Virus record (IMG/VR): IMGVR_UViG_3300017763_000006
Location: 1 to 64,000 of that record
DNA: 64,000 nt
Strand: one strand, 5' to 3'
Source of the DNA: a virus
This document shows, in pieces, positions 9,511 through 59,278 of this stretch. The first letter of the stretch is position 1. Every line of letters begins with the position of its first letter. The notes under the pieces were generated by a model. The model did no database searches and was not told where the DNA came from. It saw nothing but the letters and a program-made list of their open reading frames with translations. The position numbers and the translations under genes were made by a program.

Positions 9511-9929
9511 GTAATATTATTGGATGGCAAAAATATGAAAGTTTAATTGAAGAACAATTATCTTCTACATTTCTGACAGAAATCATTAGAACAAGTGCTG
9601 AAAATATTTCAGATGACCTTGAAGAAAATCAAGAAGAAGATACAATATACCAAGAAGAGGAAGAAGAACAGTATGAAGATGCCAAACTGATGATGCCAGT
9701 TACTAGTAAGCTAATTGAAGACGCAGTAATGATTGCTAGCTTTGATTGTTGGATTGGTCATACTAATTTTGATATTACCCAAGAAACAAAAAGAATACTA
9801 GATTCCATTGAAGGGGTAGAAGTACTCAGGATACTGAGTAGATATAGATTCTTCATTGGGGTTGGTAAAATGTTTAAGTTTAGTGACGTAAGAAATTCTA
9901 TTGAAAAAGTACTTTTAAAGGAGGACTAA
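9507..9929 (+). CDS. Hypothetical acidic protein
   Basis: ORF coupled to the sigma gene. Confidence 0.65.
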   Translation: MSNIIGWQKYESLIEEQLSSTFLTEIIRTSAENISDDLEENQEEDTIYQEEEEEQYEDAKLMMPVTSKLIEDAVMIASFDCWIGHTNFDITQETKRILDSIEGVEVLRILSRYRFFIGVGKMFKFSDVRNSIEKVLLKED

Positions 9930-10414
9930 TGATTGATATTCAAGATTGCATAGATACCAATATTGAAAGAGCGATGAAGGACAAGGATATAAAGAACATA
10001 ATGCACAAGGCTTCATCTAGGTTTATGAAGAATTTGGACTGTGATACAATATATACCTGTCAAATAAATGCTTTATGGAAAGCGTTCGTGAACTTTAAGC
10101 CAGAAAAAAATACTAAGTTTACAACGTATTTATATAAGGGTGTCATGATTGAGTGCATAAAGGCTGTCAAGTTTGATAATAAGAATAAATGCATGAATAA
10201 GCTTCATGACAATATCACCTCAAAGCGTGATAATTGCACCCTGCTTTTCGATTTGCTAGACGAACTGGAGACCAAAGAGGATAAGGATTTGCTCATGGAC
10301 AAGTTTAATAACATGACTATTGAGGAAATGGCCCAGAAACGGACGTATAGTAGAGAGACTGTCAGAAAAAAGCTGAAAAAGATCTATTCACACTTACGAA
10401 ACAGGTCTGTTTAG
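9929..10414 (+). CDS. Phage RNA polymerase sigma factor (sigma70 regions 2 and 4)
   Basis: ALWKAFVNFKPEKNTKFTTYLY (region 2) and MTIEEMAQKRTYSRETVRK HTH (region 4). Confidence 0.78.
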   Translation: MIDIQDCIDTNIERAMKDKDIKNIMHKASSRFMKNLDCDTIYTCQINALWKAFVNFKPEKNTKFTTYLYKGVMIECIKAVKFDNKNKCMNKLHDNITSKRDNCTLLFDLLDELETKEDKDLLMDKFNNMTIEEMAQKRTYSRETVRKKLKKIYSHLRNRSV

Positions 10415-10425
10415 TGTATAATTAA
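10414..10425 (+). promoter_or_regulatory. Putative late promoter motif GTGTATAATTAA
   Basis: The same core recurs upstream of probable structural genes at 16490 (+) and 50006-50016 (-). Confidence 0.55.
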
Positions 10426-10490: not shown

Positions 10491-11150
10491 ATGTCTACAG
10501 TTCAAGTATCTGATGGAGCTTCCTCCGTCACTGCTACCAGTACCGTAAATGATGGTGGCGTTGTTGTAAATGGTGGTGCTATTGCTTCTAATGGCCCAAT
10601 GACCGTCAACAAGTCTCTTACAGACATGGCTGATGGTGGTACAGATTATGGCTCTAAGGTCGTCGCTCAAGATGGTACATCTGGCGATTACGCTGGAGTC
10701 AGCACGGCGGTTGGTTCTACTGGAGGTTTGGCTTTCTATCCAAACGCTCAGGAAGGCGAACGTAATTTTCTTATTGTTGGAGCAGGCACTGCTGGTGGCA
10801 ATAATGAAATTAACAATCAAGCCAGTGGCATTTTGACAAGTCCAGCTTCTGAAGTTGGTCTGAGAAATGTCAGCCCAATGCATCTGACAGTATCGACTCG
10901 TCAGCATGGTGCGAATTCTGACGCTGAATACAATCTTCTCGCCAGACCAAGTACCGCTATGGTTCCAAACCGTACCAAGGGTACTGGCGCTGGATCAGCA
11001 GCAACTTATGTTAACCCTGTTGATGGCAGTAGCGCTGTTGATAGTGAAATTCGTCCAAGTAGAGCAGTTCCGGGTGAACTCACATACATGGCTGGATCTA
11101 CAACACCTGTTACAGATGAGTATAAGGCAAAAGATAGCCGCGAAAGCTAA
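10491..11150 (+). CDS. Probable virion structural protein (G/S/T/A-rich)
   Basis: Strong AAGGAG RBS, own promoter motif and terminator, structural-type composition. Confidence 0.55.
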   Translation: MSTVQVSDGASSVTATSTVNDGGVVVNGGAIASNGPMTVNKSLTDMADGGTDYGSKVVAQDGTSGDYAGVSTAVGSTGGLAFYPNAQEGERNFLIVGAGTAGGNNEINNQASGILTSPASEVGLRNVSPMHLTVSTRQHGANSDAEYNLLARPSTAMVPNRTKGTGAGSAATYVNPVDGSSAVDSEIRPSRAVPGELTYMAGSTTPVTDEYKAKDSRES

Positions 11151-11170: not shown

Positions 11171-11198
11171 TAATTGCCCCCTTAAATGGGGGCAGTTA
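11171..11198 (+). terminator. Hairpin, probable terminator
   Basis: TAATTGCCCCC / GGGGGCAGTTA stem. Confidence 0.6.
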
Positions 11199-11228: not shown

Positions 11229-11822
11229 ATGCTTAATATAAATCCAGAAATTGTAGCAATTATCATAGGGTCATGCAGTGGCATTCTTGGATTTTTTACG
11301 TTTGTTTGGAAAAAGTTTATCAAGCCAATCATGAAGCTGTGTCAAAATCAAGAATTCTTTGTTCAATCAGTAGAAGAGATAAGAAAAGAATTACAAACAA
11401 ATGGTGGAAGTAGCCTTAAAGATGCTATTATAGATATGAAGGATACTGTAAACAGGATAGATAGAAGACAAAAAATAATAGAACAAAGAACCAAAGCAGC
11501 ATTACATTATAGCAACGAAGCATTATTTGAAACAGATATAGCTGGCAGATTAGTTTGGAGTAATGCTCATTTTTGTCGATACGTCAGAGATAATCCAAAT
11601 GATATATCAGGATTTGATTGGTTAGCTACAATCAAAGAAGAGGAAAGAGACGAGCTATTAAAAGAATTTTTATCATGTATAAAAATGAATAGAAAATTTA
11701 GTAAAGTTACCGAAACACAGGACGGCAAAGAGATACGGATGTTAGGTTATCCTTATAAGATAACAGATGTAGAGCATGGTGGCTTTTTAGTTAGTATTAT
11801 ACCTAAAGAAGAAGAGGCTTAA
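11229..11822 (+). CDS. Membrane protein: TM + coiled coil + PAS domain
   Basis: N-terminal TM, NGGSSLKD coiled coil, then ALFETDIAGRLVWSN..F....ISGFDWLATIKEEERD PAS-like pattern. Confidence 0.7.
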   Translation: MLNINPEIVAIIIGSCSGILGFFTFVWKKFIKPIMKLCQNQEFFVQSVEEIRKELQTNGGSSLKDAIIDMKDTVNRIDRRQKIIEQRTKAALHYSNEALFETDIAGRLVWSNAHFCRYVRDNPNDISGFDWLATIKEEERDELLKEFLSCIKMNRKFSKVTETQDGKEIRMLGYPYKITDVEHGGFLVSIIPKEEEA

Positions 11823-11823
11823 A

Positions 11824-12042
11824 ATGGCAGACAAGAATTCAGCAGCATTTACTTTGAATGTAACAGACTTAATAGATATTGCTAAAAACACAGCACTAGT
11901 AGCACTAGCTGCTGGCTTAACGTATTTTGGCGAAAACATGGCAGACTTAGATCTGGGAAATATTGGAGTTATGCTAGTTCCTATTGCAGCAGTTGTTATT
12001 AATACTGTAGTTAAATGGGCTAAAAATAACGTACCGGAGTAA
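11824..12042 (+). CDS. Holin-like two-TM protein
   Basis: 72 aa, two hydrophobic helices, charged C-terminus, directly upstream of a hydrolase. Confidence 0.55.
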   Translation: MADKNSAAFTLNVTDLIDIAKNTALVALAAGLTYFGENMADLDLGNIGVMLVPIAAVVINTVVKWAKNNVPE

Positions 12043-12043
12043 C

Positions 12044-12967
12044 ATGATGTTTAAAACACCAAGAGACATACTAAAAGCTTACAAGGACGGCTTCGTAGGT
12101 TCATGGTGTGATCCAAAAGACACAGACAAACTTCTAGGAGAGTTGCCGCATCCGTTGTTCGGGGCGGCAGCTTCTAATTTATACGGAACTGGAGATCGCA
12201 AATTGGCACTCCTGTATAAATCTGTTCAGAAATTTGATCCTAGTTTTGGACCACACGAAAGGCAGACCACGGGAGACTGTGTGTCACACGCGACCAGAAA
12301 CGCTGTGGATGTGACTAGATGTCACGAAATAGTCGGAGGTGATAAAGAAGACTTTGTTGCCAGAGGTGCTACTGAAGCCATCTATGGATCAAGAGGTCAT
12401 GGAGGTCAGGGTATGTCTTGCTCAAAAGCCGCAAGATTTGTACATCAGAATGGCGGTATTTTAGTAAGAAAAGATTATGGTTTTATTGATTTTAGTAAAT
12501 ATAACAGCTCTGTTGGTTCTAGATGGGGTACAAGAGGCGTTCCTTCCGACGTTGTAAAAGAAGGAAAGAAACACCAAGTAAAAACCATTAGCCTTATTAA
12601 AACCATAGAAGAAGCCAGAGACGCTCTAGCCAATGGGTATGCTTTAAGTGTGTGTAGTAATTATGGATTTTCCTCACGCCGTAGCGAACATGGTATAGCT
12701 CGCAGGAGCGGGTCATGGAATCACGCAATGTGCTGGTGTGCTATGGACGATACTAGAACAGTACATAATGAAACATTATTTTTAATTCAAAACAGCTGGG
12801 GGGCATTTAATAGTGGCCCAAAAGCCCACGACCAACCAGATGGAAGTTTTTGGGTAAGAGAAAAAGATGCAAGAGGAATGTTAGCTCAAAATGGAGCATG
12901 GGTTTTCAGCGACGTAGACGGTTTTCCACCTAGACAAGTCGAATGGACAATTAACGAGGTATTTTAA
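12044..12967 (+). CDS. Papain-like cysteine peptidase (C1 family)
   Basis: QTTGDCVSHA (oxyanion Q and catalytic C), WNHAM (H), IQNSWG (N). Confidence 0.85.
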   Translation: MMFKTPRDILKAYKDGFVGSWCDPKDTDKLLGELPHPLFGAAASNLYGTGDRKLALLYKSVQKFDPSFGPHERQTTGDCVSHATRNAVDVTRCHEIVGGDKEDFVARGATEAIYGSRGHGGQGMSCSKAARFVHQNGGILVRKDYGFIDFSKYNSSVGSRWGTRGVPSDVVKEGKKHQVKTISLIKTIEEARDALANGYALSVCSNYGFSSRRSEHGIARRSGSWNHAMCWCAMDDTRTVHNETLFLIQNSWGAFNSGPKAHDQPDGSFWVREKDARGMLAQNGAWVFSDVDGFPPRQVEWTINEVF

Positions 12968-15900
12968 TGTCAACTCATTCTCAGTATCAAAATATTCAAA
13001 TTAAAAGAGATACAGACTCTAATTTTCAGCTACATAATCCAGTGCTAAAAGCAGGAGAATTTGCAAGGAGTACAGATTCTAAAAAGCTTAAAATTGGAGA
13101 TGGAACAACTGCTTGGAACGATCTTCCAGAGTTTTTAGATAGCGATAGAATAACTTACAAATTATTCCAATCAGTAACTGTGCCAGCAATAAATGCTCAG
13201 GCTGGAAAACAGCTTGCTCTTGATATTTCTGATGTAGGTTTAGATGATAATCATTTTCATTCTCCATTTTTAAATGCTGGTGATCTTCCTGATTATGTAC
13301 TTATTAAAAGTGCATTTATAAGCAATGATAAGACTACGCTATATGTTAATCTACTAAATACTGATTCCTCATTAGATGGTGGAGGTGTCTCAAGTTCTAC
13401 ACCCAACAATCCCTCCTTGTCTAAAATAATCGTCCTTTCTTGCATTTTTGTAAGACTAACTGAAATTTCTATACCATCTGTCACTACAACTCAACCTCCA
13501 GTGATTAGACCTCAACAGCTTTACTCTACTGGTAAAAATGAGTTTGGTCAACTCGCACAGTCAAACAAAATTGATCTTAACGAATTTAAAATCAACCATG
13601 ACGATGCCGACAAGTGGATTGATGCAGACTTAGGATACTATCACAGCTTGGCTGTAAAGAGCGGAGTTAGTAATGTTGGTGAACTTTATGCGGCTGGATA
13701 TAATTATTATGGACAACTAGGCAATGGCGAACACGGTGCTGGTAAAAACAAAACAGATTGGACCAACATAGGATCTTCTAGATATTTTAGAGATGGAACA
13801 GAATGGACAGAAAACACAGAAACATATGATAAAGTTAGTGCTGGATCTCATTTTTCATTTGCTGTAGATTCTAGTGGATATTTGTTTAGCTTTGGAAATG
13901 GCTCATACGGAGCTTTGGGTCAAGGAAACGTAAGTCTTTACGACAAACCTACGTTAGTTGGGAATCAATTATATTACTATCATAAAGCTGATACTAGCGC
14001 TTGGTTTAATAGTACCGCAAGTCAATCTAATTCTCCTTTTCAACACAATGGTTCAGCTGGTTCATTCTTAGATGGTGATCTTAGTAAATACATTTTACCC
14101 ACAGGTACTTTTACTATAAAAGGCGTACAATCTCAGTATGCAATTAAGTTAGAAAATTCTACTGGTAACATCGCTTTATCATCTTCCAGCACGGTAACTC
14201 ATAATAGTGAAACATATTATTATGGAGACGTTACTGTGACTGTTACAGACAAATTTGGCAAGGCTAGCCTATACTCATTGATACATGGCTATGGAGCCAA
14301 CGGTCAGGATATTTTCCTAGATACAAATCCTAACACTGGTTGGTCAGATGTTGACGGTGGAAACTCTCATTCTTTAGGCGTTAAAAATGGACAACTTTAT
14401 ACTTGGGGGCGAAATAACTGTGGTCAACTAGGAAATAACGACCACGCTCACAATGAAGTAAAAATTCCAACTGTTATTATGCCCTCTAAAACTAACTGGA
14501 TTACTGTAGCTGCTGGTAAAGAACATTCGTTGGCATTAGATTCTGACGGAGATGTTTATGCATTTGGCTGCAACGACGATGGGCAATTAGGATTTAATAG
14601 CTCAAGTAATCACGTTCATAATCCAACAAAGATAACTTTTGATTTTGCACTTGAGCAAGATGAAACATTTGAAACTTTAGCATATGAATCTTTTGCTAGC
14701 GTAGTTGATTTCAATGATGAAAAAGTTTTTGTGTTTCACAGTGGAGTAAGCGATCCTTCATACGATCCGGTAAAACGATATATAGTTCCAAGCGGTAATT
14801 ATGTAATCAAAAATGTGCCATCTCAATATCCTATTGCTATATTAAATGCAGGGCAGCAAGATAAGATTTCATATAATGGAGATAACCTTCATGGATGCAT
14901 AGAGCTAACTGATACTAATGCAGATGGAAAATATAATTTTTATTATGGTGACATTTATCTTAGTGTTAGTGGCATTTGGGAATCTGTTAGCACATACAGT
15001 TTTTATGATGGTTACATGGGCGGTCGGGGAGCTTTTCTCTCAGATAAACCACAATATGAGGTTAAAGATGTAGATGCTGGATTGTCTCATTCTGTTCTTC
15101 GTGTTAGCCCAAGCGGTAACGACAAAATAGGAACTATTCTAACATTTGGGGCCAACGGAGAAGGACAACTTGCAACTGGTGATAATCTGTCTAGAAAACA
15201 GCCCTATAGAGTTAATATAGATAATGTAAGGAGTATAGCTGCTGGTGGAAATCAAACATTAGCAATAGACAATCGAAAATACATATGGTCTATGGGTAAT
15301 AATCAATTCGGTCAACTTGGATTAGCAGATAAAGTAAATAGAAATCTACCTTCTAGAATAAATTCAGAGATCAAGTGGGATGAAGTTTACACTAACGGTT
15401 TTCATTCTATGGGTGGAGTATTTTGTTTTCAACCAAGTAGTCCTACTAGTATAGATGTTAAAAATTCTACTCAAGATTCAACAGTTGGCTATGGTCAACT
15501 AGCACTGAGCTGGGAACACTCTAGAGCATTGGAAGAAGTAGTTACTCATTACAAGGTTTCTTACCAAAAAAATGGTAGTACAACGTGGACTACTGTAAAC
15601 AATGTCCTTGCAGAAAAGTTTGAAGACGGCTACGAGGGAGGAGTTCCTCCTAATGTAGATGAGCCATTAACTCTAAAATTAGACAACTTAGTATTAGACC
15701 CACCAGATTATACTGCAAGCTATCTCATTAGAATTTCTGGAGTTAATTCTGCTGGCGATGGAGAATTTATAGAATCTTCTAGTGCAACTGTACCACAAGA
15801 AGCAGATAATGCTATATGGAATGCTGGTAGAGTTCAATTTTATTCACACCTAGATAGTGGAAATCTTTTTGATCTTACTGGAAATACTACTAGGATAGAA

Positions 15901-16485
15901 GAAGACTTTGAGACGAATGCTCCAAGATATCTCACAGGTCAGTTCGCTACGTCTCTAAGGTTATATCATTACGATAGTATATGTTATACAACTAACACTG
16001 ATGACATAGATCATGGCACAGTAGAATTTTTCTTTAGACCTAGAAATAATGCTTCTAATAGTCCTATTGTAACGCTGTCTACAGGAACTCAACAAAAACT
16101 ACAATTAATATACAGTGGTTCTAAAGATAATGGATATTCCATATCAGCTAAAGATGAAAATGACTTAGTAACATTAACGTCTCCAGTAAATACTGGTATT
16201 AGTGAAGATTCTTTTGTCCACGTAGCTTTGGTTAAGACAAGTGGAGATCCAACAGCCGCCAACGCAACTGATCCGTCTAGGATTAATCTCTTTATTGATG
16301 GAAGCGGTGTAGCTTTTGGCAAAGACTCTATAAACTATGGCAACATCACTCACATACTGCTAGGTTCTGGAACTAATTTCTATGACTTCGATGTTGATGA
16401 ATTAAGAATTTCAAACAGTTCAGTATATGATGATTACGATGGAGGCTTCTTGTCTTCAGTCCCGGTCAGGCCGTATGGCACGTAA
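12967..16485 (+). CDS. Tail fibre / receptor-binding protein (Mtd-N-like, RCC1 repeats, FN3, LamG-like)
   Basis: NPVLKAGE..KIGDGTTAWNDL N-terminus; repeated AG.xHSL..G..Y.WG.N..GQLG; FN3-like LSW..Y...IRISGVNSAGDG; LamG-like HVALV..LFIDG..DELRIS. Confidence 0.8.
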   Translation: MSTHSQYQNIQIKRDTDSNFQLHNPVLKAGEFARSTDSKKLKIGDGTTAWNDLPEFLDSDRITYKLFQSVTVPAINAQAGKQLALDISDVGLDDNHFHSPFLNAGDLPDYVLIKSAFISNDKTTLYVNLLNTDSSLDGGGVSSSTPNNPSLSKIIVLSCIFVRLTEISIPSVTTTQPPVIRPQQLYSTGKNEFGQLAQSNKIDLNEFKINHDDADKWIDADLGYYHSLAVKSGVSNVGELYAAGYNYYGQLGNGEHGAGKNKTDWTNIGSSRYFRDGTEWTENTETYDKVSAGSHFSFAVDSSGYLFSFGNGSYGALGQGNVSLYDKPTLVGNQLYYYHKADTSAWFNSTASQSNSPFQHNGSAGSFLDGDLSKYILPTGTFTIKGVQSQYAIKLENSTGNIALSSSSTVTHNSETYYYGDVTVTVTDKFGKASLYSLIHGYGANGQDIFLDTNPNTGWSDVDGGNSHSLGVKNGQLYTWGRNNCGQLGNNDHAHNEVKIPTVIMPSKTNWITVAAGKEHSLALDSDGDVYAFGCNDDGQLGFNSSSNHVHNPTKITFDFALEQDETFETLAYESFASVVDFNDEKVFVFHSGVSDPSYDPVKRYIVPSGNYVIKNVPSQYPIAILNAGQQDKISYNGDNLHGCIELTDTNADGKYNFYYGDIYLSVSGIWESVSTYSFYDGYMGGRGAFLSDKPQYEVKDVDAGLSHSVLRVSPSGNDKIGTILTFGANGEGQLATGDNLSRKQPYRVNIDNVRSIAAGGNQTLAIDNRKYIWSMGNNQFGQLGLADKVNRNLPSRINSEIKWDEVYTNGFHSMGGVFCFQPSSPTSIDVKNSTQDSTVGYGQLALSWEHSRALEEVVTHYKVSYQKNGSTTWTTVNNVLAEKFEDGYEGGVPPNVDEPLTLKLDNLVLDPPDYTASYLIRISGVNSAGDGEFIESSSATVPQEADNAIWNAGRVQFYSHLDSGNLFDLTGNTTRIEEDFETNAPRYLTGQFATSLRLYHYDSICYTTNTDDIDHGTVEFFFRPRNNASNSPIVTLSTGTQQKLQLIYSGSKDNGYSISAKDENDLVTLTSPVNTGISEDSFVHVALVKTSGDPTAANATDPSRINLFIDGSGVAFGKDSINYGNITHILLGSGTNFYDFDVDELRISNSSVYDDYDGGFLSSVPVRPYGT

Positions 16486-16489
16486 AATA

Positions 16490-16500
16490 GTGTATATTAA
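16490..16500 (+). promoter_or_regulatory. Putative late promoter motif GTGTATATTAA
   Basis: Intergenic, upstream of the AAGGAG RBS of the 16534 gene. Confidence 0.55.
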
Positions 16501-16533: not shown

Positions 16534-16776
16534 ATGGGCGTAGTTTCAACAACAGATGTAGTGACTAATCCAGATACATCCAGAGAAGTAGCAACAAACG
16601 CTAGCGTTGTTTGTTCTTGCTTTCCAACTGGTGAATCATTTACTATTGATACTAATACAGATACTAATTTCGTAAACTTCGATACGAGCTTGACTTATGC
16701 TGCTTTAGAAACCAAGTATACTGGTCGATTCGATGATATAGCATATTATAATGCTGTTGATGGAGGAAGTCCATGA
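16534..16776 (+). CDS. Small probable virion protein
   Basis: Strong RBS, T/S/D-rich composition. Confidence 0.55.
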   Translation: MGVVSTTDVVTNPDTSREVATNASVVCSCFPTGESFTIDTNTDTNFVNFDTSLTYAALETKYTGRFDDIAYYNAVDGGSP

Positions 16777-17213
16777 AAGCGAAGCATTTGGACTATCTAT
16801 TTATCGCTGTAGCTGTAGCCATATTGTCTGTGTCTACATTTAATAATCTTTTTCCAAACCGCACCTCTTGGGGTAATGGTTTTAATGGAGGATTTGGGTG
16901 TAACACAGAAGATATCACAAACATGTATAGCGATTATGTAGAGACATGGAGGTTAGAAATATCTAAAAGCTTTGACACGGCAGTTAAAGAAGTACTTTCT
17001 GTAGATATACCGGAAGTTAAGAAAATTGATCCAGATCCAAAGAAATGTATCTGTGGAGGAAGCGGCACAATAGTTCACGGAGATGGACACAAAACCAAAT
17101 GCCCCCATCACGGTAAGGGTCAGTTTGGAAAAGACGTTATAATTAAACCATTAAGTAAGATTAAACTGGAGGAAACATGGACACAGAAATCATTCTCAGA
17201 ATTGTCGCAGTAG
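16773..17213 (+). CDS. Signal/TM protein with Cys-His motif
   Basis: N-terminal hydrophobic helix; CICGGSG..HGDGH..CPHH. Confidence 0.6.
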   Translation: MKAKHLDYLFIAVAVAILSVSTFNNLFPNRTSWGNGFNGGFGCNTEDITNMYSDYVETWRLEISKSFDTAVKEVLSVDIPEVKKIDPDPKKCICGGSGTIVHGDGHKTKCPHHGKGQFGKDVIIKPLSKIKLEETWTQKSFSELSQ

Positions 17214-17452
17214 TAGTGGCAGTTTTTATTCTTTGTACTGGAGTAGATTATTCACCAATAAAAAGCTTTATTACAAATCTTTTCAAGAGGAAGCCCAAGG
17301 TAATTGTGCCTGAAAATTCTTCTGTAAAATTTTTAGATATTGTAGAATCTTGGCACGTACTAAGAAATCAATGTGAAGCATACGGATTGCACGAAGCTGT
17401 AGAGAAAATAGACGAAGTATTTCCACTACTAAACGGAGGGGAAGATGTTTAG
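17177..17452 (+). CDS. Membrane protein
   Basis: GGAGG RBS, N-terminal TM. Confidence 0.65.
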   Translation: MDTEIILRIVAVVVAVFILCTGVDYSPIKSFITNLFKRKPKVIVPENSSVKFLDIVESWHVLRNQCEAYGLHEAVEKIDEVFPLLNGGEDV

Positions 17453-17903
17453 GAAAATAGTAATTATTGCTCTTTTGTTTTATTCTGTGTTTGGTAATTC
17501 ATTATTGTCGAATGTGGATGTAACGCCAGTTACGCCACCAACAACTATAATAGACATGGATAAGCCAGACGATAAAACTATTGAATCTGTCTCAGCCTTT
17601 TCCGATGTTATTACTGACCCAACAGATAGAACTAAAATAGCACTTTTTAATTATGAGTTTGCATCTAGAATCAATTCTTGGGAAAACATTAATAACCAAC
17701 AGATGAACGATGTGTATACTAAAGCAGGAAATAACTTTTTTAAGAACACTTTAGTCGATAAATATAATAGTTTAGCAGAGATGATTATCTCCTTAATGCA
17801 AAACTGCGTAGGCGATGATGCTCATATTCTTACTGACAAAGAAAAAGATGATATCCAAAAACATTTTTCAGCACTCGCTTGGGTGTTGGTAAATAAAAAA
17901 TAA
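17445..17903 (+). CDS. Exported or membrane-anchored protein
   Basis: Signal-like N-terminus followed by a Pro/Thr linker. Confidence 0.65.
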   Translation: MFRKIVIIALLFYSVFGNSLLSNVDVTPVTPPTTIIDMDKPDDKTIESVSAFSDVITDPTDRTKIALFNYEFASRINSWENINNQQMNDVYTKAGNNFFKNTLVDKYNSLAEMIISLMQNCVGDDAHILTDKEKDDIQKHFSALAWVLVNKK

Positions 17904-17913
17904 GGAGCTAATA

Positions 17914-18573
17914 ATGGCTGAATCAGCAGATACAAGAATACAGTTTAGAAGAGGCACAGCAAACGATTGGTCTACGTCTAATCCCACTCTTGGAACTGGA
18001 GAACCGGGATATGATACTGATAATGGAACTTTTAAGATAGGAGACGGTACTAACGGTTGGAATGCCCTCGCAGGAGCATCAGATGGATATACAACCAGCT
18101 ATGTAGTTGCAGATATTACTGGAGTTTCTGGAAGTAAAAACGATTGGAATCTAGAAAGCACATCTGCTAACCTTCTTAAAATAACCCCAACAGGCTTACT
18201 AACTATTACTGGCATTACTGCTTCCTACAACTATAAAAAGTTTACTATTCTTAATGATTCTAATTCTGTCAATATTAATTTAGCATCATCAAATTCAAGT
18301 AGCGTTGCTGCCAATAGACTTGTCTTTACAGAGGGCGTTGGTTCTATTATATACCCCGGTGAAAAAGTAGATTTTGTATATGACTCAGTTGATAACAATT
18401 GGCTAGTCCTAAAACATGGAATACCATCTAACACAAGACCAATTATCAATAAATACAATGGAGCTGGCAGTGCCGTGGTTAGTGGAGTATTTAATATTGT
18501 AATACTTAACCAAGACACATACAATAACCAAACAAGCAAAGATCCAAATACTATATATTTTGTACCTGAATAA
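17914..18573 (+). CDS. Short tail-fibre protein (Mtd-N-like)
   Basis: IQFRRGTANDW..NPTLGTGEPGYDTD..FKIGDGTNGWNAL; C-terminal KDPNTIYF. Confidence 0.75.
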   Translation: MAESADTRIQFRRGTANDWSTSNPTLGTGEPGYDTDNGTFKIGDGTNGWNALAGASDGYTTSYVVADITGVSGSKNDWNLESTSANLLKITPTGLLTITGITASYNYKKFTILNDSNSVNINLASSNSSSVAANRLVFTEGVGSIIYPGEKVDFVYDSVDNNWLVLKHGIPSNTRPIINKYNGAGSAVVSGVFNIVILNQDTYNNQTSKDPNTIYFVPE

Positions 18574-36160: not shown

Positions 36161-37720
36161 ATGAATTGGTTCCCGTTGCATAATTTCACACATTACAGCT
36201 TATTAAAAGGTTTCTCAAAGCCTACAGAGCTTGCCAAGATATGCGCTGATAATGATTACCCAGCCTGTGGTATCGCAGACTATAAGACTATATCTGGATG
36301 CGTTTCGTTTTATCAGGCTTGTAAGAAAGTTGGCATAAAGCCTATACTTGGATGTGCCTTCGACACCAATACTGTATTTGCAAAAAATAAAAAAGGTTGG
36401 TTTGACTTAATAGAACTAGTTTCTTCTATAGATGTATCTGGAGATTTAGACGATAAATTTTATAAAGAAGTTATGTCTAGAGATAATCTTATATCTGTAG
36501 AAAAAAATATATCTGCTAGCTATTATGTAAAATCAGAACAGGCCAGACTGCACAGAGTATTGCTATGTTCTGAACTAAAAACAAATCTACCAAAAATACA
36601 AAAACAAATACGAAAGGGAGAACTAGACAATAAATATTTAGAATATTTTACAAAAGAAGACAAGTTCGTACAGCCCCAACAAGTTACCAAACAGCTAGAA
36701 GAAATATATAACACCTGTGAAGAATATGATATTCTCAGTGGGCCAATGCTTCCTAAGTTTGTATGTCCAAACAATTTATCAGAAGAAGACTATCTAACCA
36801 ACATGGCTCGTGAAGGATATAAAAAGTTAGTAAAAAGCAAGGTGGGTAAAGATAAAGACAAACAGCAAGTCTATGGAGACAGATTTAGAAAAGAGTTAAA
36901 AGTAATTAAAGATGCAGACCTGTTTGGTTACTTTTTGATTGTACAAGATATTATTAGACACATAGAAAAAGATATGAGATGTTTAGCTGGGCCGGGAAGA
37001 GGGTCTGCTGCTGGTTGTTTAATATCATATCTGGTTGGCATTACTAAAATTGACCCTGTAGAACATGATCTATTATTTGAAAGATTCTACAATGCTGGTC
37101 GTAATACTGGAGGTCACGTTTCTCTGCCGGATATTGACATGGACGTTCCGGGCAAGAGAAGAGATGATGTTATAGATTATTTAAAAACTAAATATGGCAA
37201 AGACCATGTAAGCCAGATGATTACGTTTGGTAGATTGCAAGGACGAAGCGCTATTAAAGAAGTGCTTAGGATAAATGATGCTTGTTCTTTTGCAGAAATG
37301 AACGCTATAACAAAAAGCATACCAAACGAAGCTGACATATCAGATCAACTTGCAGAAATGGAAGACGAAGATAGATCAATTATAAGATGGTCCTTGCTAA
37401 ACCGTGCGGATGAGCTGCGAGACTTCTGCCATATTACAGAGGATGGAAAACTTGAGGGTGATTACGCTGAGTATTTTCAACAAGCGATTAATATAGAAGG
37501 AACATTTAAGACACAAGGCAAACACGCCGCTGGAGTAGTGATATCAAAAGATCCTCTCCACACTGTTTGCCCGATGGTTAAACAGAAAGGATCTGACGAA
37601 AAAATAGCGGGATTAGAAATGGCAGACCTAGAAGCTTTAGGTCATGTAAAGTTCGATGTTTTAGGAATTAACCTCTTAGACAAACTCATGAAAATTAAGG
37701 AACTAACTAATGGCAAATAG
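36161..37720 (+). CDS. dnaE: DNA polymerase III alpha, N-terminal part (reduced PHP + palm/thumb)
   Basis: HYSLL, GPGRGSAAG, LLFERF, PDIDMD, HAAGVVI, KFDVLG. Confidence 0.92.
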   Translation: MNWFPLHNFTHYSLLKGFSKPTELAKICADNDYPACGIADYKTISGCVSFYQACKKVGIKPILGCAFDTNTVFAKNKKGWFDLIELVSSIDVSGDLDDKFYKEVMSRDNLISVEKNISASYYVKSEQARLHRVLLCSELKTNLPKIQKQIRKGELDNKYLEYFTKEDKFVQPQQVTKQLEEIYNTCEEYDILSGPMLPKFVCPNNLSEEDYLTNMAREGYKKLVKSKVGKDKDKQQVYGDRFRKELKVIKDADLFGYFLIVQDIIRHIEKDMRCLAGPGRGSAAGCLISYLVGITKIDPVEHDLLFERFYNAGRNTGGHVSLPDIDMDVPGKRRDDVIDYLKTKYGKDHVSQMITFGRLQGRSAIKEVLRINDACSFAEMNAITKSIPNEADISDQLAEMEDEDRSIIRWSLLNRADELRDFCHITEDGKLEGDYAEYFQQAINIEGTFKTQGKHAAGVVISKDPLHTVCPMVKQKGSDEKIAGLEMADLEALGHVKFDVLGINLLDKLMKIKELTNGK

Positions 37721-38390
37721 AGATTACATCGTATTCGACTTTGAAACAGGAAGTCGTAACCCTCATAGAACACAACCAACACAAATAGCCGCAATAGCCC
37801 TAGACGGTCGAAATTTAGCCGTTAAGGGGTCATTTAATAGTGAGATAAAGCCCATACTAGATGACGAAAAAGCTTTAGAAGCTGGACTAGACCCCATAGA
37901 AGACGGAGCATTAAAAGTCACTGGTAAGAATCGTAAAGATCTAGCAAAAGCTCCAGCCTTAAAATCAGTATGGAATAAGTTTACTAAATTTGTAGACCAA
38001 TATAATTGGAAGGGCGAACCATTTTTTGCTCCTATTCCAGTGGGATATAATATCATTGGGTTTGACATGCCGATAATCAATAGACTATGTGAACAATTTG
38101 GTCAGTGGGACAAGAGCAGGAGTCAGCAAAAACTGTTTAGTAAAGTATATAAAGTAGACCTTATGGATAATATTTTCATGTGGACAGAGGGTGATCCAAG
38201 TGTAAGGTCGATTAGTATGGACTCTCTACGAGAAAGAATGGGCCTATCTTCAGAAAATGCACACGATGCCTTGCAAGATGTGAAGGATACGGCTAATATC
38301 TTTATAAAGATGTTGAAGACTCATCGGGCAGTCTACCAAGAAATTGAATTTGAAAAGGCATTTGCAAATGGACGAACATACGTATCATGA
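37710..38390 (+). CDS. DEDDh 3'-5' exonuclease (DnaQ-like)
   Basis: VFDFETG, GYNI.GFD, HDALQD. Confidence 0.88.
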   Translation: MANRDYIVFDFETGSRNPHRTQPTQIAAIALDGRNLAVKGSFNSEIKPILDDEKALEAGLDPIEDGALKVTGKNRKDLAKAPALKSVWNKFTKFVDQYNWKGEPFFAPIPVGYNIIGFDMPIINRLCEQFGQWDKSRSQQKLFSKVYKVDLMDNIFMWTEGDPSVRSISMDSLRERMGLSSENAHDALQDVKDTANIFIKMLKTHRAVYQEIEFEKAFANGRTYVS

Positions 38391-38901
38391 TTTGCCATAC
38401 GGTTTGAAAAAAACATATAAAATTACTCCTAATGCAGAAGCAGCAGAGTTTTTACAAGCAGAAGTTCAAGAATTTTTTGGATATAAATCTAAATCCAAGA
38501 GAGAGAAATATGCTGATATATGGATTAACGAAAACTATGGCATCAATGTTAAAACAGACAATCTAAATTCTCAACAGAACAAAGGTCGTCTTTGTACAGC
38601 AGAAGTTAATCAGTGGCTAAAAAATGAAAATAACAAATTATCATTTATATTCATTGAGTATACTAACGACAATGGTGATCTAGAAATACAAAGCGTACAA
38701 ACAAGAAACATAGAAGAGGTAGAATATGAAATAAGTAACCAAGGCAAAGGTCTACTACAACCAAAAAGGTACAGAAACAAAGTAGTGTTTAGATCAACCA
38801 TATCTAGATCGGAATGGATGGAAGAATTTAAGATTAAGTATGCGGATTTTATTGACAAGCAAATAAAACGATTTGAAGAAAAGAAAAAACATTGGTGTTA
38901 G
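38344..38901 (+). CDS. Putative restriction-endonuclease-fold protein (start probably 38368)
   Basis: YADIW.....GINVKT resembles a D-xn-(N)xK nuclease motif. Confidence 0.45.
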   Translation: MNLKRHLQMDEHTYHDLPYGLKKTYKITPNAEAAEFLQAEVQEFFGYKSKSKREKYADIWINENYGINVKTDNLNSQQNKGRLCTAEVNQWLKNENNKLSFIFIEYTNDNGDLEIQSVQTRNIEEVEYEISNQGKGLLQPKRYRNKVVFRSTISRSEWMEEFKIKYADFIDKQIKRFEEKKKHWC

Positions 38902-40461
38902 ATGGAATATAATGACAAAAAAACTTGGCAGCTTTTTGAAGAAGGTAAAACAAAAGGTGTCTTTCAGCTAGAAAGTAACCTTGGTAAATCTTGGTCGAAG
39001 AAACTTGCTCCAAATAATATTGAAGAGTTATCAGCTTTAATTGCGATTATTCGCCCCGGATGCTTAAAAGCATTTGTTGATGGTAAATCTATGACTCAAC
39101 ATTTTATTGATCGTAAGCATGGTCGTGAAGAGGTAACATATTTGCACGAATCATTGGAAGAGGTATTATTGCCTACGTATGGAGTGCTAGTATACCAAGA
39201 ACAATCCATGCGTATTGCTCAAAAAATAGCTGGCTTCAATCTTGAAGAAGCAGATGAATTACGAAAAGCTATTGGTAAGAAGAAAGCAGACCTTATGGCT
39301 AAAGTTAAAAAGAAATTTATAGCTGGAGCTAAGAGAGTCAAAATTGTGAACAAGGAAGAGGCAGAACAAATATTTGGATGGATTCAAGCTTCAGCTAGAT
39401 ACGCATTCAACAAGTCACATAGTATATCTTATGCTGTCTGTTCATACTGGAGCGCATACGAAAAGGCTCATAACACAGAGGCTTTTTTTCTGTCTTATTT
39501 GTATTACGCCAATGAAAAGCAAGATCCTCACCAAGAAGTATATGAGTTAATATCAGAAGCAAAGCTTTTTGACATACAAGCTAGAACACCAAGCCTAATT
39601 AATTTTGAAAATAAGTTCAATGTTAGGAATCATAAAATTTACTTTGGGATTAAAGACATTAAATCGTTGACAGGTAAAACTGGAGACAAAGCTATGAGTG
39701 CGATAAAAGAAGCTGAAGAAGATATGAATAAAGATATCTCTAAATTTACATGGATTGAGATACTACTATTTTTTGGCTCAAAAGTTAGTTCTACAGCCTT
39801 CAAAGCGTTAGCTTCCATAGGGTTCTTTAGAGACTTTAATGGTAAAGTATCTAGAAATAAAGCTTTGTATGATTACGAGATTTATAGAATTTTGACCAAG
39901 GCAGAACAGAAATGGCTTCAAAATAATTATCAAGATAAAAAGTGGACAAATTTAATTGACGCACTTACCGATTTAGCCCCAACCAAAAAACAGGGAGGTG
40001 GCACTAGCAAGATAGAAAGAAAACAGCTAGTAGAGAATGAAATACAACTGCTCATAGATCCACCATACGACTTGGAAGATGATGCAGCTTGGATTATTGA
40101 TCAAGAGACTAGGCTGTTAGGATGTCCAGTAACAATGACTAGAATAGAACGGTCGGACACATCTGCCGCCAATACCACATGCAAAGAAATTGTCAATGGA
40201 AAGAAAGGCAAAAACTTGTGCGTAGCAGCTAACATACAGAGACTAGCTGAGTATAAAATCAAAAAGGGCGAATCAAAAGGCCAAAACATGGCATTTTTAA
40301 CAATAGAAGATGACACCTGCATACTGGACAGTGTTGTAGTATTCCCCAGAATAAAAGAAAAGTATAAATATATATTATATGAGGGGAACAATTTAATATT
40401 CTGCGGCTATGTTAATAAAAATGATTCCTCGTTGATTGTGGAAAATGTTCACGAAGTTTAG
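38902..40461 (+). CDS. dnaE: DNA polymerase III alpha, C-terminal part (fingers, HhH, OB)
   Basis: GVFQLES, ALIAIIRPG, TYGVLVYQEQ, ADELRKAIGKK, YAFNKSH, MAFLTIED. Confidence 0.92.
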   Translation: MEYNDKKTWQLFEEGKTKGVFQLESNLGKSWSKKLAPNNIEELSALIAIIRPGCLKAFVDGKSMTQHFIDRKHGREEVTYLHESLEEVLLPTYGVLVYQEQSMRIAQKIAGFNLEEADELRKAIGKKKADLMAKVKKKFIAGAKRVKIVNKEEAEQIFGWIQASARYAFNKSHSISYAVCSYWSAYEKAHNTEAFFLSYLYYANEKQDPHQEVYELISEAKLFDIQARTPSLINFENKFNVRNHKIYFGIKDIKSLTGKTGDKAMSAIKEAEEDMNKDISKFTWIEILLFFGSKVSSTAFKALASIGFFRDFNGKVSRNKALYDYEIYRILTKAEQKWLQNNYQDKKWTNLIDALTDLAPTKKQGGGTSKIERKQLVENEIQLLIDPPYDLEDDAAWIIDQETRLLGCPVTMTRIERSDTSAANTTCKEIVNGKKGKNLCVAANIQRLAEYKIKKGESKGQNMAFLTIEDDTCILDSVVVFPRIKEKYKYILYEGNNLIFCGYVNKNDSSLIVENVHEV

Positions 40462-49203: not shown

Positions 49204-49233
49204 GGAGGGGCTTAATCGCCCCTCCTTTTTTTT
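49204..49233 (+). terminator. Intrinsic terminator at the convergence of the two operons
   Basis: GGAGGGGC / GCCCCTCC stem + T8; a second hairpin ACCATTC / GAATGGT lies at 49174-49202. Confidence 0.85.
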
Positions 49234-49975
49234 ACAAAAAGTCTACTGTAAAATACAGAGCATATTGTTTCTTTTGACCAATCTGAGTTGGAGAGCAAGA
49301 CAAAGCTACATACCAATCGTGTTGAGTAAATCTACCACTGTCTCCCTTTCCGTAGTCGTCAGCGTTAAGAGCGAGGTCTCCAGTGATATATGTAAGGTAT
49401 GATCCTGTCATATCTGCTGCTTCTCCAGCTAAACCGCTTGGTCCGGGCGAGTTAGTCAATGAAATAGCTTGAGGTTGTGAAGAATATGTTTCTCCGACTA
49501 CTTGCCAAACATTGCTAGTGGGGAAAGCTCTGTGTTGTAACTGTGATGTTGTGTGGGGCTTACGAACTTCGTATAAATATGTAGTAACATCTACAGCATG
49601 ACTAGTAGTAGTTTGTCTATCATATATAATTACTTTTGGTTGTGATGATCTAACGGCAGTTTCATTTGTAAACCTAATATTTAGTGTAGCGTTAGCATTA
49701 CTAAGAGTACTTAAATTTACTGGAGATGAACCATTAATCTCTACAGTCCCCTGAATGCCATCTCCACCAGTGGTGGCATATGCATTATTGTGAAGCTGAA
49801 GGGTTCCATCAGCGCCGTTTTCGTCAACAATCCAAGTTGTTTCTTGGACACTATTAATAGCTATAGGGAAGCCAAAATCGCTCCCAAAAAACCCAATTCC
49901 GCTGCCGTTTTGGTAGTCAATTACCTGTTGGGCATCGCTAGTATTCAAATTTCCTCTAAATGTGATTTCTGGCAT
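49232..49975 (-). CDS. Probable virion structural protein
   Basis: GGAG RBS, beta-rich composition, preceded by the late-type motif. Confidence 0.6.
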   Translation of the reverse strand: MPEITFRGNLNTSDAQQVIDYQNGSGIGFFGSDFGFPIAINSVQETTWIVDENGADGTLQLHNNAYATTGGDGIQGTVEINGSSPVNLSTLSNANATLNIRFTNETAVRSSQPKVIIYDRQTTTSHAVDVTTYLYEVRKPHTTSQLQHRAFPTSNVWQVVGETYSSQPQAISLTNSPGPSGLAGEAADMTGSYLTYITGDLALNADDYGKGDSGRFTQHDWYVALSCSPTQIGQKKQYALYFTVDFL

Positions 49976-50005
49976 GTTTTTTTCTCCGATAGTGAGGGAA
50001 CTATG

Positions 50006-50016
50006 TTATTATACAC
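50006..50016 (-). promoter_or_regulatory. Putative late promoter motif GTGTATAATAA
   Basis: Intergenic; reverse complement of TTATTATACAC. Confidence 0.55.
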
Positions 50017-50022
50017 GAAAAA

Positions 50023-53000
50023 TTAGCTAAATGTAACCGTTATATAGTTGTGCATTTGATACCCCGTTGTTGAGTCTGGATCTTCATGTAGGGCTATTCC
50101 TATGTCATTATGGCAGTAGGAAAATACTTCATAATATCCGGGGTGCTTATAAGTATAAGATTCTGTGACCTCGTTTTGAAGGTTGTCTTGTCCATTATCT
50201 TCCACAGAAATGCTCACACTTCTGGTCCCATATACCCTTCTCTGACCACTAGTGCTGGGTAAAGACACTCTAGTCATAGAACTCCTACGTTGTGGGGGAT
50301 GGTCACACATCGGCCTGCTTTGTACCAAGCCGTTTAAAAATGATATTACAGCTCCATCTCCTTCGGAATCCAAGGTCATTACTACTGGGAAGTTATTAGG
50401 CTCAAAGCCTTCACCAATTTCATCCCAATCGCTGTCTCCATCTACTGGGTGTGTTAATGTTCGTTTCTTAGAAAATGTAGTAGTATTAGTGTCTTTACTT
50501 TTTGCGATGTCAAAACTTACAATACCCCCATCATCATCAACTTCCGTGACTTTTATAAGCACCCCCCTGTCTCCTGCCAATATGTCGTCTACTGTATAGT
50601 CTGTTCCAGCGGTAACAACAATTTTACTTGCTTTATCTACACCGATAACTAGTTTATCCCAAAAATAACCATATCCAGTTAATAACTTACCTCTTCTGTG
50701 AAAACTTGCATTCCAGTAAGCTTCAGGTCTCAACACTGTACTTGAGTATATTTTATCATTTTCTGCTACGCTGTTTCCGTCATTGCCTGAATTATATTTC
50801 CACTTTTTTAATACTGAATCACTATTATCTGGAGTATAATCTACTTTATTTCCATATGTAGGAACTCTGTAATCTATATCTAGTTCGATGGGATGAACAT
50901 TAATTGTGGTGTCTACATATTCTGTACCGTTCCATGTAGGCACTGTTTTTTCTTCTGTAGTAGGATCAGTTGCGTCTGCATTAAAATGTAATGGAGTTGC
51001 GTACTGCGGTAGCCAAGCGGTATCTTCTCTAGGCCAACCATCCCAAACATCTATATGTACAGCTCCAGTTCCAAAAGAATATATACTGTCACTAGCACTG
51101 CCCCAAACCACCGTAGTCCCACTAATCACTCTGCCTCCGGGGTCTGAACTCCAAGCAAACATGGCTCCAAGAATAGTTACTTGTGGGCCTTGTAACCCTC
51201 CACCTCCGTAAAATACTCCTTGAGTACCAAACGTCTGACTCGTATCAACATTGAGGTCAAAGCCTCCTTTTTTGTATAATTTTCTTCTAGCCGCAGTAAG
51301 GCCAACTGCTCCCGCTCCCAAAAAAGGACCATCATCACCAAAAAATACGTATGACCCATTGGGTTTATAAAATGGTGCTTCTTTGGTAACATACGCATCA
51401 TATTTTGGACCGGCATAGCCTGCTGGAGCATCATTGTAAAGATGCCCATATGCCTCCTCTACTGTTCCGGCAATAGTGCTAAAGGAATGTCCACCAAACA
51501 AATCTGTACCCTTGGGGTATCCTGTGTGATTGGCTATATTTGCATAAAAATTTCTTCCTCTTTTCTGAGAATTATTGGTTATAGCGTCAATGATCTCAGT
51601 ATTTTGATCTTTATGTCCGTACAGCTCTCCGGTTAAAAAAGAAAATTGAATTTGATTTTCATTTGAAGGAGTGAGACTTAATCCCGCCGTCTGAGGTGTA
51701 GAGTTGGGAAGTGTTAATAGAGAAAATCGTGCAGTTTGTAAATCTGAAAGACTTCCAATATTAATGGCTTTTAGTACTTTGTCATAGTCATATATTGGCG
51801 ATCCGTCATCTGCTCTTGTTCCTAGTGTAGCAATTTCTGCTGGCAATTGTTCTGTAGGATACGATTTGCCGTCTATTGTGACTTTAGATTTTTTATAACC
51901 TAAAGGAAAAACTGGCCCCCAGAATACAGGTATATCTCTATATTCTATACTATCTAAAGCGACATTTGTTGAGTCGCCTATACCAATAGCCGTGTTAACT
52001 CGACCAACATGAGTTTTCTGAGCATCAGGAGTTCCACCCCAAGCGTGTTCGTGACCATTTAAGTTGCCTCCGGGTATTCCATTTCCCGTTTGATTAAATA
52101 TTGTATCTTGAAAATAACCATTAGCTAAACTTCTAGTCTCCGTCGTCGCTGAATAAATTTTTCTCCATATGAACTCTGGCAATTCAGTTTCTTTTATAAT
52201 GTCTCCATTAAAAGTTCTAAACCAATCGTCCGAGCTTGCTAAAAACTTACCAAACTCCCAGTGGCCCTCCCAAGCTGGAGGTCTTTCTTGAACGACAGAC
52301 TCCCCTAATTTTACTAGAATATTTTCTCCATCTATAGAATGAGCAATAGCAACTTCACCTCTAGTAAAAAGATTAGCAGATCTATTGACAACCCTAATCT
52401 TTTCTACTCTATATTCATTACTCCAAGAGCCATCTTCTTCGTTTGTTGAATGTCCAGTTCTTATAAAGTTGGGACCAAAAGCGTGGGGATTTTTATTTTG
52501 GACTTGAACTGGAGCGGCTAATCCAGTAGTAAAATTAGACATATCATTCTCTCTTTGAGAACCATAAAACTCATCAGGATTTCTATTTTCTAGATTTCCA
52601 GTATCTAAATCGCTAGCAACAATTTCTGCTCCATCTATATCTTCTAATATAGTTACCAAAAACGCTCCACCAGTTTCCCAAACTCCTAAATTATGATTGT
52701 ATATTAACTTTAAAGGAGCGGCAACCATTGAAGAATAATCTTCCTCAGTTATGTTTACATAACCAACATCTGCTGCGTGTTCGTTTGGTGTCTTTGCATT
52801 TTTTTTACTCTGTTTGTGTGCATACCTTGCTCCACTATGTCTGCGTGGGTGAGAGGCAAACAGGGTCGAAGACTTAAAGGCGGGAACTCTATCTTTACGT
52901 TCGTTGTGTCTCTTGTGAAAATATATACGAACTGATTTCTCAGTTCCAAGTTTACTTTCACCACCAATATTAGCATAGATACAACCATACGTACTATTCT

Positions 53001-53382: not shown

Positions 53383-53391
53383 ATCAATCTC

Positions 53392-59268: not shown

Positions 59269-59278
59269 AATAATTTAC

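Follow-up and report, generated by a model that had tools for sequence, protein, structure and literature searches.

Positions 11229-12967 of a marine viral record in IMG/VR (IMGVR_UViG_3300017763_000006) hold three adjacent genes, for a transmembrane (TM) protein with a PAS domain, here called TM-PAS, a small membrane protein of 72 amino acids (aa) and a papain-like cysteine peptidase. The DNA studied, referred to below as the window, comprises the first 64 kb of this 94.5-kb record, which is estimated to be 60% complete. The three open reading frames (ORFs) are the following:

11229..11822, plus strand, TM-PAS protein of 197 aa, with a single-pass anchor, two helices and a PAS domain but no output domain
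11824..12042, plus strand, holin candidate of 72 aa, with a weak Ala/Gly-rich helix (about residues 22-37), an acidic loop, a strong TM segment (about residues 45-64) and a short basic C terminus
12044..12967, plus strand, xylellain-type C1A cysteine peptidase of 307 aa, with predicted catalytic residues Q74, C79, H227 and N250

An initial annotation of the window had proposed that these genes form a sensor-controlled lysis cassette. The best explanation of our results is that they are the front end of a conserved module in a large, uncultured clade of aquatic phages whose genomes measure about 130-175 kb, and we give a probability of roughly one half to the reading of this module as a lysis cassette in which the C1A peptidase takes the endolysin role and the 72-aa protein, or elsewhere a protein of 60 aa, is the candidate holin. 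The 1-bp gaps between the genes are borne out by the ORF coordinates and by the junction sequences (TAA-a-ATG, then TAA-c-ATG), and the stop codon of the peptidase gene shares one base with the start codon of the next gene (TAATG), which encodes a 1172-aa fibre-like protein of the Mtd_N/RCC1 type. The three-gene arrangement recurs in dozens of related viral contigs and is therefore no chance pattern of ORFs.

The peptidase is a member of the papain family by its fold and catalytic residues and a remote one by sequence. Its AlphaFold2 model has a predicted local distance difference test score (pLDDT) of 95.1, and the top 50 Foldseek matches of the model were C1A enzymes without exception, with xylellain at an E value of 7e-11. 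VIA-align gave Z scores of 17-21.7 against xylellain, cathepsins and papain and of 17.7 against Cwp84; the alignment with xylellain (3OIS; Z 21.7) covers 233 residues at a root mean square deviation (rmsd) of 3.0 Å and 18% identity. The annotated Q/C/H/N set is intact and conserved, with Q74, C79, H227 and W252 invariant and N250/S251 at least 90% conserved in an alignment of 55 homologous sequences down to 31% identity. A profile built from these 55 sequences reaches caricain, cathepsins and xylellain at E values of 1e-4 to 1e-3 (caricain, 1e-4), and HMMER pairs H227 and the NSWG motif of the peptidase with H159 and NSWG of caricain. The window sequence alone gave no match in Pfam (E up to 1), PHROGs, NCBIfam or the sequences of the PDB and falls below the PF00112 sequence threshold; one homologue (P0120) carries a precomputed PF00112 assignment.

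As had been annotated, the peptidase has no signal peptide, since hydropathy analysis found no hydrophobic segment in it. Mature papain-type enzymes align with it from about residue 50, and zymogens also cover residues 5-49 through the ends of their propeptides, so positioned that the N terminus may keep the enzyme latent. Xylellain resembles it in fold, in the Q/C/H/N set, in the NSWG motif, in the short segment at the propeptide position and in being of the intracellular type without a signal peptide, but the window enzyme differs in sitting in a phage membrane-protein module and in having relatives that carry inteins and anchor fusions. These relatives are numerous: a search of the 90% cluster set gave 1,555 at an E value of ≤1e-3, another search gave 1,557 representative clusters at 50% identity, and many of them come from Tara and other ocean metagenomes. 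A tblastn search of 50,697 deposited phage records gave no match to the peptidase, or chance-level ones only (E ≥0.5). A published survey reported that "short bacterial" xylellain-type C1A peptidases have been acquired by tailed phages, with no role assigned (PMC10380794), and the literature that we searched held no published biological role for xylellain-type peptidases in phages.

The surroundings of the peptidase gene were compared in 75 related viral loci, in which ORFs were classified with hidden Markov models (HMMs) built here; locus counts are given over 76. The peptidase belongs to a wider conserved module in these loci, and its neighbours in all 76 include small membrane or exported proteins. 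The three genes of the annotated cassette are real and linked, as claimed, but its boundary was drawn too narrowly, and the unit continues at positions 16773-17903. The genes that follow the peptidase in the window are these:

12967..16485, plus strand, 1172-aa tail-fibre-like protein with Mtd_N and RCC1 repeats (Pfam, PHROG), a variable insertion that splits the module
16534..16776, plus strand, 80-aa protein with no family match, which accompanies fibre-type insertions in some relatives
16773..17213, plus strand, 146-aa exported or anchored Cys-rich protein, hydrophobic at residues 3-27, with the motif CxC-G-x-G...GDGH...C
17177..17452, plus strand, 91-aa N-terminally anchored small membrane protein, a constant member of the module
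17445..17903, plus strand, 152-aa helical protein with an N-in/C-out anchor (or secreted) and a Pro-rich linker, a constant member of the module

The core order in the related loci is peptidase, Cys-rich exported protein, sometimes a membrane protein of 110-125 aa, a membrane protein of 91-100 aa and an anchored protein of 150 aa. The front or middle of the module comes in two variants. One has the genes of a 219-aa protein, TM-PAS and the 72-aa protein ahead of the peptidase, as in the window; the other has a glycosyltransferase-like gene ahead of the peptidase and a 60-aa two-helix protein inside the downstream group, two or three genes downstream of the peptidase. The fibre gene is absent, replaced or different in most relatives, which also lack the 80-aa gene, and there the Cys-rich gene directly follows the peptidase. 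The Cys-rich gene is present in 64/76 loci, and its motif was found in 30 of the 47 nonredundant members; a lipobox-like signal occurs in 9 of these 47 and is missing from the window copy. The peptidase is the most conserved product of the module, with a mean identity of 69% compared to 32-50% for its neighbours. An Mtd_N-type fibre N terminus is common to the fibre-like gene at 12967-16485 and a further gene at 17914-18573 (Pfam E values of 4.5e-11 and 5.4e-15).

A functional bond between the peptidase and the 152-aa and 146-aa proteins is evident from natural fusions. Among the 150 best-scoring representative homologues, which are the basis of all fusion and intein counts, 14 start with a membrane anchor, after which come a Pro-rich linker, the full-length domain of the 152-aa protein and then the peptidase (P0162, P0164-P0167, P0172, P0173, P0175, P0177, P0181, P0183-P0185 and P0217; E values down to 3.5e-15). 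Five of the 14 also end in the Cys-rich motif of the 146-aa protein (in fusions CxxC...GDGH...C; E values of 3e-11 to 7e-7), and a CPPC thioredoxin-like tail is added in some fusions. The predicted topology of the anchored forms puts the fused peptidases on the outer side of the cytoplasmic membrane, which points to the envelope as the probable site of action. The occurrence of soluble and membrane-anchored forms within one family is a pattern known for endolysins, which can be soluble or of the signal-arrest-release (SAR) type.

The same set of homologues is rich in inteins. About 45 of the 150 (among P0121-P0265) are interrupted by stretches of 130-400 residues at either or both of two sites, of which one lies immediately before the catalytic Cys79 and the other near residues 224-230, beside the catalytic His227. 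Intein_splicing, Hint and LAGLIDADG domains were found in the two insertion-bearing homologues that were checked, and in an IMG/VR relative (L016, 4846-6801) the insertion is a 337-residue class 1 intein (Cys1...His-Asn) for which the catalytic Cys is the +1 residue.

For the 72-aa protein, hydropathy analysis gave one strong segment at residues 42-66 and a weaker Ala/Gly-rich one at about 22-37, followed at the C terminus by a short, mildly basic tail (KWAKNNVPE). Its annotation as a two-TM protein therefore stands for one segment, the second being weak, which leaves two TM segments plausible and uncertain. The nearest ESM Atlas clusters are automatically named "Holin family protein" (0.95 and 0.94), with r1t-type holins farther off, and we treat these names as leads only. 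An identity as an r1t holin was rejected, as PF16945 finds nothing in five genomes even at an E value of 10, and the JGI label "ABC-type uncharacterized transport system permease subunit" on a few members of the family is regarded as a misannotation. A family profile search of a set of 5.8 billion proteins returned unnamed family members only, and tblastn of the 72-aa and 60-aa proteins against the 50,697 phage records gave no matches, or chance-level ones (E ≥0.5).

A further argument for a holin comes from how this protein is exchanged. Of 52 nonidentical loci whose flanks were complete, the 72-aa gene alone occurs in 31 and the 60-aa gene alone in 19, while one has both and one neither. The two proteins are not homologous (hhalign probability of <1%), and on the peptidase tree the states 72-aa with TM-PAS, 72-aa alone and 60-aa each need at least two well-supported changes. 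All 4 of the 60-aa proteins tested matched phrog_297, "holin" (E values of 6.6e-4, 1.5e-3, 0.023 and 0.33); the idea that this protein resembles Pfam Phage_holin_1 was dropped, as it has no Pfam match. The swap of a small membrane protein for a nonhomologous one within the same cassette is typical of holins. Of the 31 loci with the 72-aa gene, 26 also carry the TM-PAS gene, which always lies directly upstream of the 72-aa gene and never occurs without it. In several 72-aa loci that lack TM-PAS, the slot holds a single-pass coiled-coil protein of 109-116 aa with no PAS domain. The slot proteins L055:3273-3620, L057:3270-3620 and L010:3014-3343 are not detectably homologous to the N terminus of TM-PAS.

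Hydropathy confirmed the TM helix of TM-PAS: residues 6-27 are strongly hydrophobic and lead into a K-rich stretch. Because this stretch comes after the sole hydrophobic segment, the positive-inside rule predicts an N-out/C-in topology with the PAS domain in the cytoplasm. The structural model has a long helix (residues 6-57), a break, a second helix (63-93) and then the PAS domain. An NGGSSLKD motif, which the initial annotation had taken as a mark of small membrane proteins next to lysis genes, occupies residues 58-65, and the break carries an invariant E..NGG.S.KD pattern (residues 54-65) between the two predicted helices. As a mark of lysis neighbours the motif gained no support, with only weak matches to two PHROGs of unknown function and nothing significant in the 50,697 phage records, against which the N-terminal 95 residues gave at most chance-level tblastn matches (E ≥0.5).

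The annotated PAS-like domain without a kinase or other output domain proved correct in both respects. The fold, at about residues 95-192, was modelled by AlphaFold2 with a pLDDT of 80.6 and with the element order beta2-alpha3-beta3 over residues 98-192, and no output domain is present. The top Foldseek matches in the PDB are all PAS/LOV domains (LOV, ARNT, FixL and similar; E values of 1e-5 to 1e-4) and cover about 103-107 columns at an rmsd of about 3 Å. Sequence models of the domain score just below their cutoffs (Pfam PAS, 21.3 versus 22.6 bits; TIGR00229, 19.8 versus 22.9), and PAS_9 scores 18.4 against a cutoff of 27. Invariant residues in this part are W110, W131, R140, E146, S149, C150, R155, G173, P175 and Y176, and among them S149-C150, R140, R155, W110, W131 and Y176 suggest a conserved pocket. 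No signature of a LOV or heme cofactor was found in the sequence of the domain, and no paper listed by a literature search on holins and lysis timing mentions a PAS domain.

The initial annotation had seen no muramidase or amidase in the window, and this extends to the rest of the record and to its relatives. No lysin family turned up when 62 ORFs and the three giant proteins of the 94.5-kb record were scanned with Pfam, and six-frame searches of this record and four relatives with PF00959, PF01510, PF01464, PF00182 and PF13539 found no lysin. Profile HMMs of ten lysin families likewise found none in seven larger relatives, five of which reach 94% completeness or more and two of which are bounded by terminal repeats (161 kb and 131 kb); PF05257 (CHAP) and PF01183 (GH25) were not among the families searched. 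Positive controls worked for PF00959, PF01510, PF01464, PF08291, PF01520, PF13539, PF00877 and PF01551. The check for a canonical endolysin elsewhere, which had been proposed as a means of refuting the lysis interpretation, thus found none in the record or in the seven relatives.

The layout has parallels in the lysis cassettes of tailed phages, such as lambda S-R-Rz/Rz1 and the pinholin and SAR-endolysin systems of phage 21 and P1. Here, as there, a small membrane protein is encoded directly upstream of a hydrolase without a signal sequence, small exported or anchored proteins follow, nonhomologous small membrane proteins replace one another in a modular way and the enzyme occurs in soluble and anchored forms. 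The module departs from such cassettes in that its enzyme is a C1A peptidase where theirs is a muramidase, transglycosylase, amidase or CHAP/M15 peptidase. Its candidate holin falls outside the described families, its downstream proteins do not qualify as spanins and a PAS-domain protein stands at its head. Known antiholins and lysis regulators (T4 RI, lambda S107 and P1 LydB) are accessory membrane proteins beside the holin, and TM-PAS resembles them in its position, in being dispensable in some relatives and in being tied to one type of holin. T4 RI senses in the periplasm, and we know of no antiholin with a PAS or other sensor-type cytoplasmic domain.

Papain-superfamily domains do occur in endolysins, and the N5 domain of mycobacteriophage Lysin A is a papain-family domain (PMC3314691). 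The N5, CHAP and NlpC/P60 lysins share with the window enzyme a superfamily of Cys-His domains and use them to cut wall peptides, but they belong to the C39-like, CHAP and NlpC/P60 branches and usually have wall-binding and second catalytic domains as fusion partners, whereas the window enzyme is a stand-alone C1A peptidase. A stand-alone lysis enzyme of the C1A branch is not among the known papain-superfamily endolysins (CHAP, NlpC/P60 and Lysin A N5). In BFVD, a C1-like fold is also seen in phage proteins that are described as having peptidoglycan-binding or muramidase modules. LysBT1, considered as a further comparison, is an amidase-SLH endolysin (PMC12285257) and has no bearing on the peptidase.

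If the module is a lysis cassette, it would be expressed late, and the peptidase would be made without an export signal and accumulate in the cytoplasm, possibly held latent by its first 50 or so residues. The 72-aa membrane protein would act as the holin, and its triggering would let the peptidase reach the envelope, where it would work together with the exported proteins encoded at 16773-17903. Its substrate would be the peptide bonds that hold the envelope together, either in the stem and cross-link peptides of peptidoglycan or in structural envelope proteins. TM-PAS would be an optional accessory of the 72-aa type of holin, most likely a modulator akin to antiholins, through which a cytoplasmic signal would act on triggering. 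Holin activity, peptidase substrate, latency and regulation by the PAS domain are all inferred in this scheme. Control of holin timing by TM-PAS is plausible from the co-occurrence and gene position of TM-PAS and the 72-aa protein, but it is a tentative proposal that we hold at well below even odds. More doubtful still is an extended version in which the PAS domain would read a redox, energy or metabolite signal and set the firing of the holin, the protease would be kept latent by its propeptide-like N terminus and by the thiol chemistry of the Cys-rich and thioredoxin-like partners and would open the envelope by cutting proteins or wall peptides, and the whole clade would lyse without a glycosidase or an amidase.

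The part of the initial annotation that put a protease in the endolysin position beside a holin has gained support from the C1 fold, the lack of an export signal, the coupling to the 72-aa gene, the lack of a canonical endolysin family and the lysis-like context of membrane proteins; the holin, for which the 72-aa protein falls in no holin family and has only a language-model lead, its regulation by TM-PAS and the substrate of the peptidase stay proposals. Several points weigh against the lysis reading as a whole. The evidence for it is computational throughout. The 72-aa protein has no holin family match in Pfam, PHROGs or NCBIfam, and the holin matches of the 60-aa protein are weak. C1A peptidases are, to our knowledge, not an established class of endolysins. 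The lack of lysin families counts for less than might appear: the ten-family set also included PF00182 and PF05838, and these searches for GH19 and GH108 had no positive control and are uninformative; moreover, the negatives are of limited weight because Pfam also misses the prohead protease and the structural proteins of these phages, an effect of divergence. A reading of the downstream genes as spanins was rejected, as a lipobox is found in 9/47 Cys-rich proteins only and the topology is a misfit because other lineages have both downstream families in one chain with the peptidase. The strong conservation and intein richness of the peptidase would be unusual for a lysis enzyme. Inteins were found in 0 of 224 mycobacteriophage Lysin A genes (PMC3314691), and the papain-fold enzymes known to cut cell walls are CHAP, NlpC/P60 and their relatives (PMC10318531). 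Two peptidase contigs, L079 (15.5 kb) and L080 (5 kb), are binned to metagenome-assembled genomes of Dehalococcoidia and Flavobacteriales, and because they are from different phyla and probably misbinned phage DNA, we make no host call from them.

Much of the same evidence can be read in favour of a module that acts on the envelope without lysing the cell, by processing host or phage proteins in the membrane or periplasm (as in receptor destruction, superinfection exclusion or the remodelling of a protein-rich wall), with the small membrane proteins as partners or anchors. In the fusions the peptidase is joined to an N-terminal membrane anchor and to partner domains, C1A enzymes are proteinases and the structural neighbour Cwp84 processes an S-layer protein, the peptidase is under strong purifying selection and the 72-aa protein is matched to no holin family. 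However, the window peptidase lacks an export signal and would need a membrane lesion to reach the envelope, the 60-aa alternative repeatedly matches the PHROG holin, and complete relatives show no other lysis enzyme, so that these phages would be left with no visible means of release; we regard this explanation as unlikely. It is improbable to a greater degree that a divergent conventional endolysin is encoded elsewhere, with the peptidase in an accessory role in lysis, such as that of cutting the tethers between outer membrane and wall in place of spanins. The module has no recognisable spanins, and remote lysins may have been missed, given that Pfam fails on almost all structural genes and that profile HMMs of lysin families, with CHAP and GH25 left out, were the sole approach. 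Against a hidden endolysin, the eight control-backed families gave no candidate in the seven relatives, and the catalytic domains of lysins generally rank with the phage proteins that are simplest to identify.

The objection raised with the initial annotation, that the peptidase might instead be a virion protein or maturation protease, is weakened. In this explanation the enzyme would process proheads, giant structural proteins or tail fibres, and its membrane-protein neighbours would be incidental. It would account for the core-gene-like conservation and for the active-site inteins in about 45/150 homologues, which are typical of essential phage genes; an S78 prohead protease was not found in the five near-complete relatives (the S77 search had no positive control), and in the window the peptidase gene is translationally coupled to the tail-fibre gene. 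That fibre gene is, however, a variable insertion absent from most relatives, while the linkage of the peptidase with four or five membrane proteins is constant. The peptidase gene is also some 37 kb away from the structural block and on the opposite strand, and fusions to an N-in/C-out anchor, a Pro-rich linker and exported domains misfit an enzyme working inside the capsid, so that only a slim chance is left to maturation. The structural block (49232-64000 and, in the remainder of the record, 64001-94543; minus strand) encodes proteins of 1119, 1958, 4075 and 3187 aa, and Pfam found nothing in it except one FG-GAP repeat match.

Should the module prove to be a lysis system, progeny release in a major group of uncultured marine phages would depend on a papain-type protease and not on a classical endolysin. 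This would be a new enzyme class for phage lysis and a new type of lytic enzyme, and it would give a hint on the envelope of the host. If TM-PAS is a partner of the holin, no lysis regulator before it would have had a recognisable sensor domain in the cytoplasm, and environmental control of lysis timing would become testable. The inteins at the catalytic cysteine and the three-part fusions are handles for experiments and for tracing the family.

Upstream of the three genes lies a sigma-factor-like gene at 9929-10414, followed by these features:

10414..10422, plus strand, GTGTATAAT motif, a candidate phage-specific (late) promoter heading the block, ahead of the 219-aa gene
10491..11150, plus strand, 219-aa Gly/Ser/Thr-rich protein, encoded directly upstream of the TM-PAS gene in relatives too (tblastn/blastp synteny)
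11178..11192, plus strand, short GC-rich hairpin CCCCT-TAAAT-GGGGG (consensus scan and sequence, a pattern match only)

The GTGTATAAT motif occurs 9 times in the window compared to 3.5 expected, and a similar motif lies at 16490, just ahead of the second half of the module. A sigma-70 promoter scan of the window was at chance level, with 40 found and 35 expected. The 219-aa protein gave no match in Pfam, PHROG or NCBIfam. By pattern match only, the hairpin, which lies in the 78-bp gap before the TM-PAS gene, could be a terminator-like or attenuating element.

Elsewhere in the window, a gene of the DNA polymerase III alpha type (36161-40461) is split into two ORFs of 519 aa each that match consecutive parts of phrog_405. 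Between the two halves lie two small ORFs, one of which has an RNase_T exonuclease domain.

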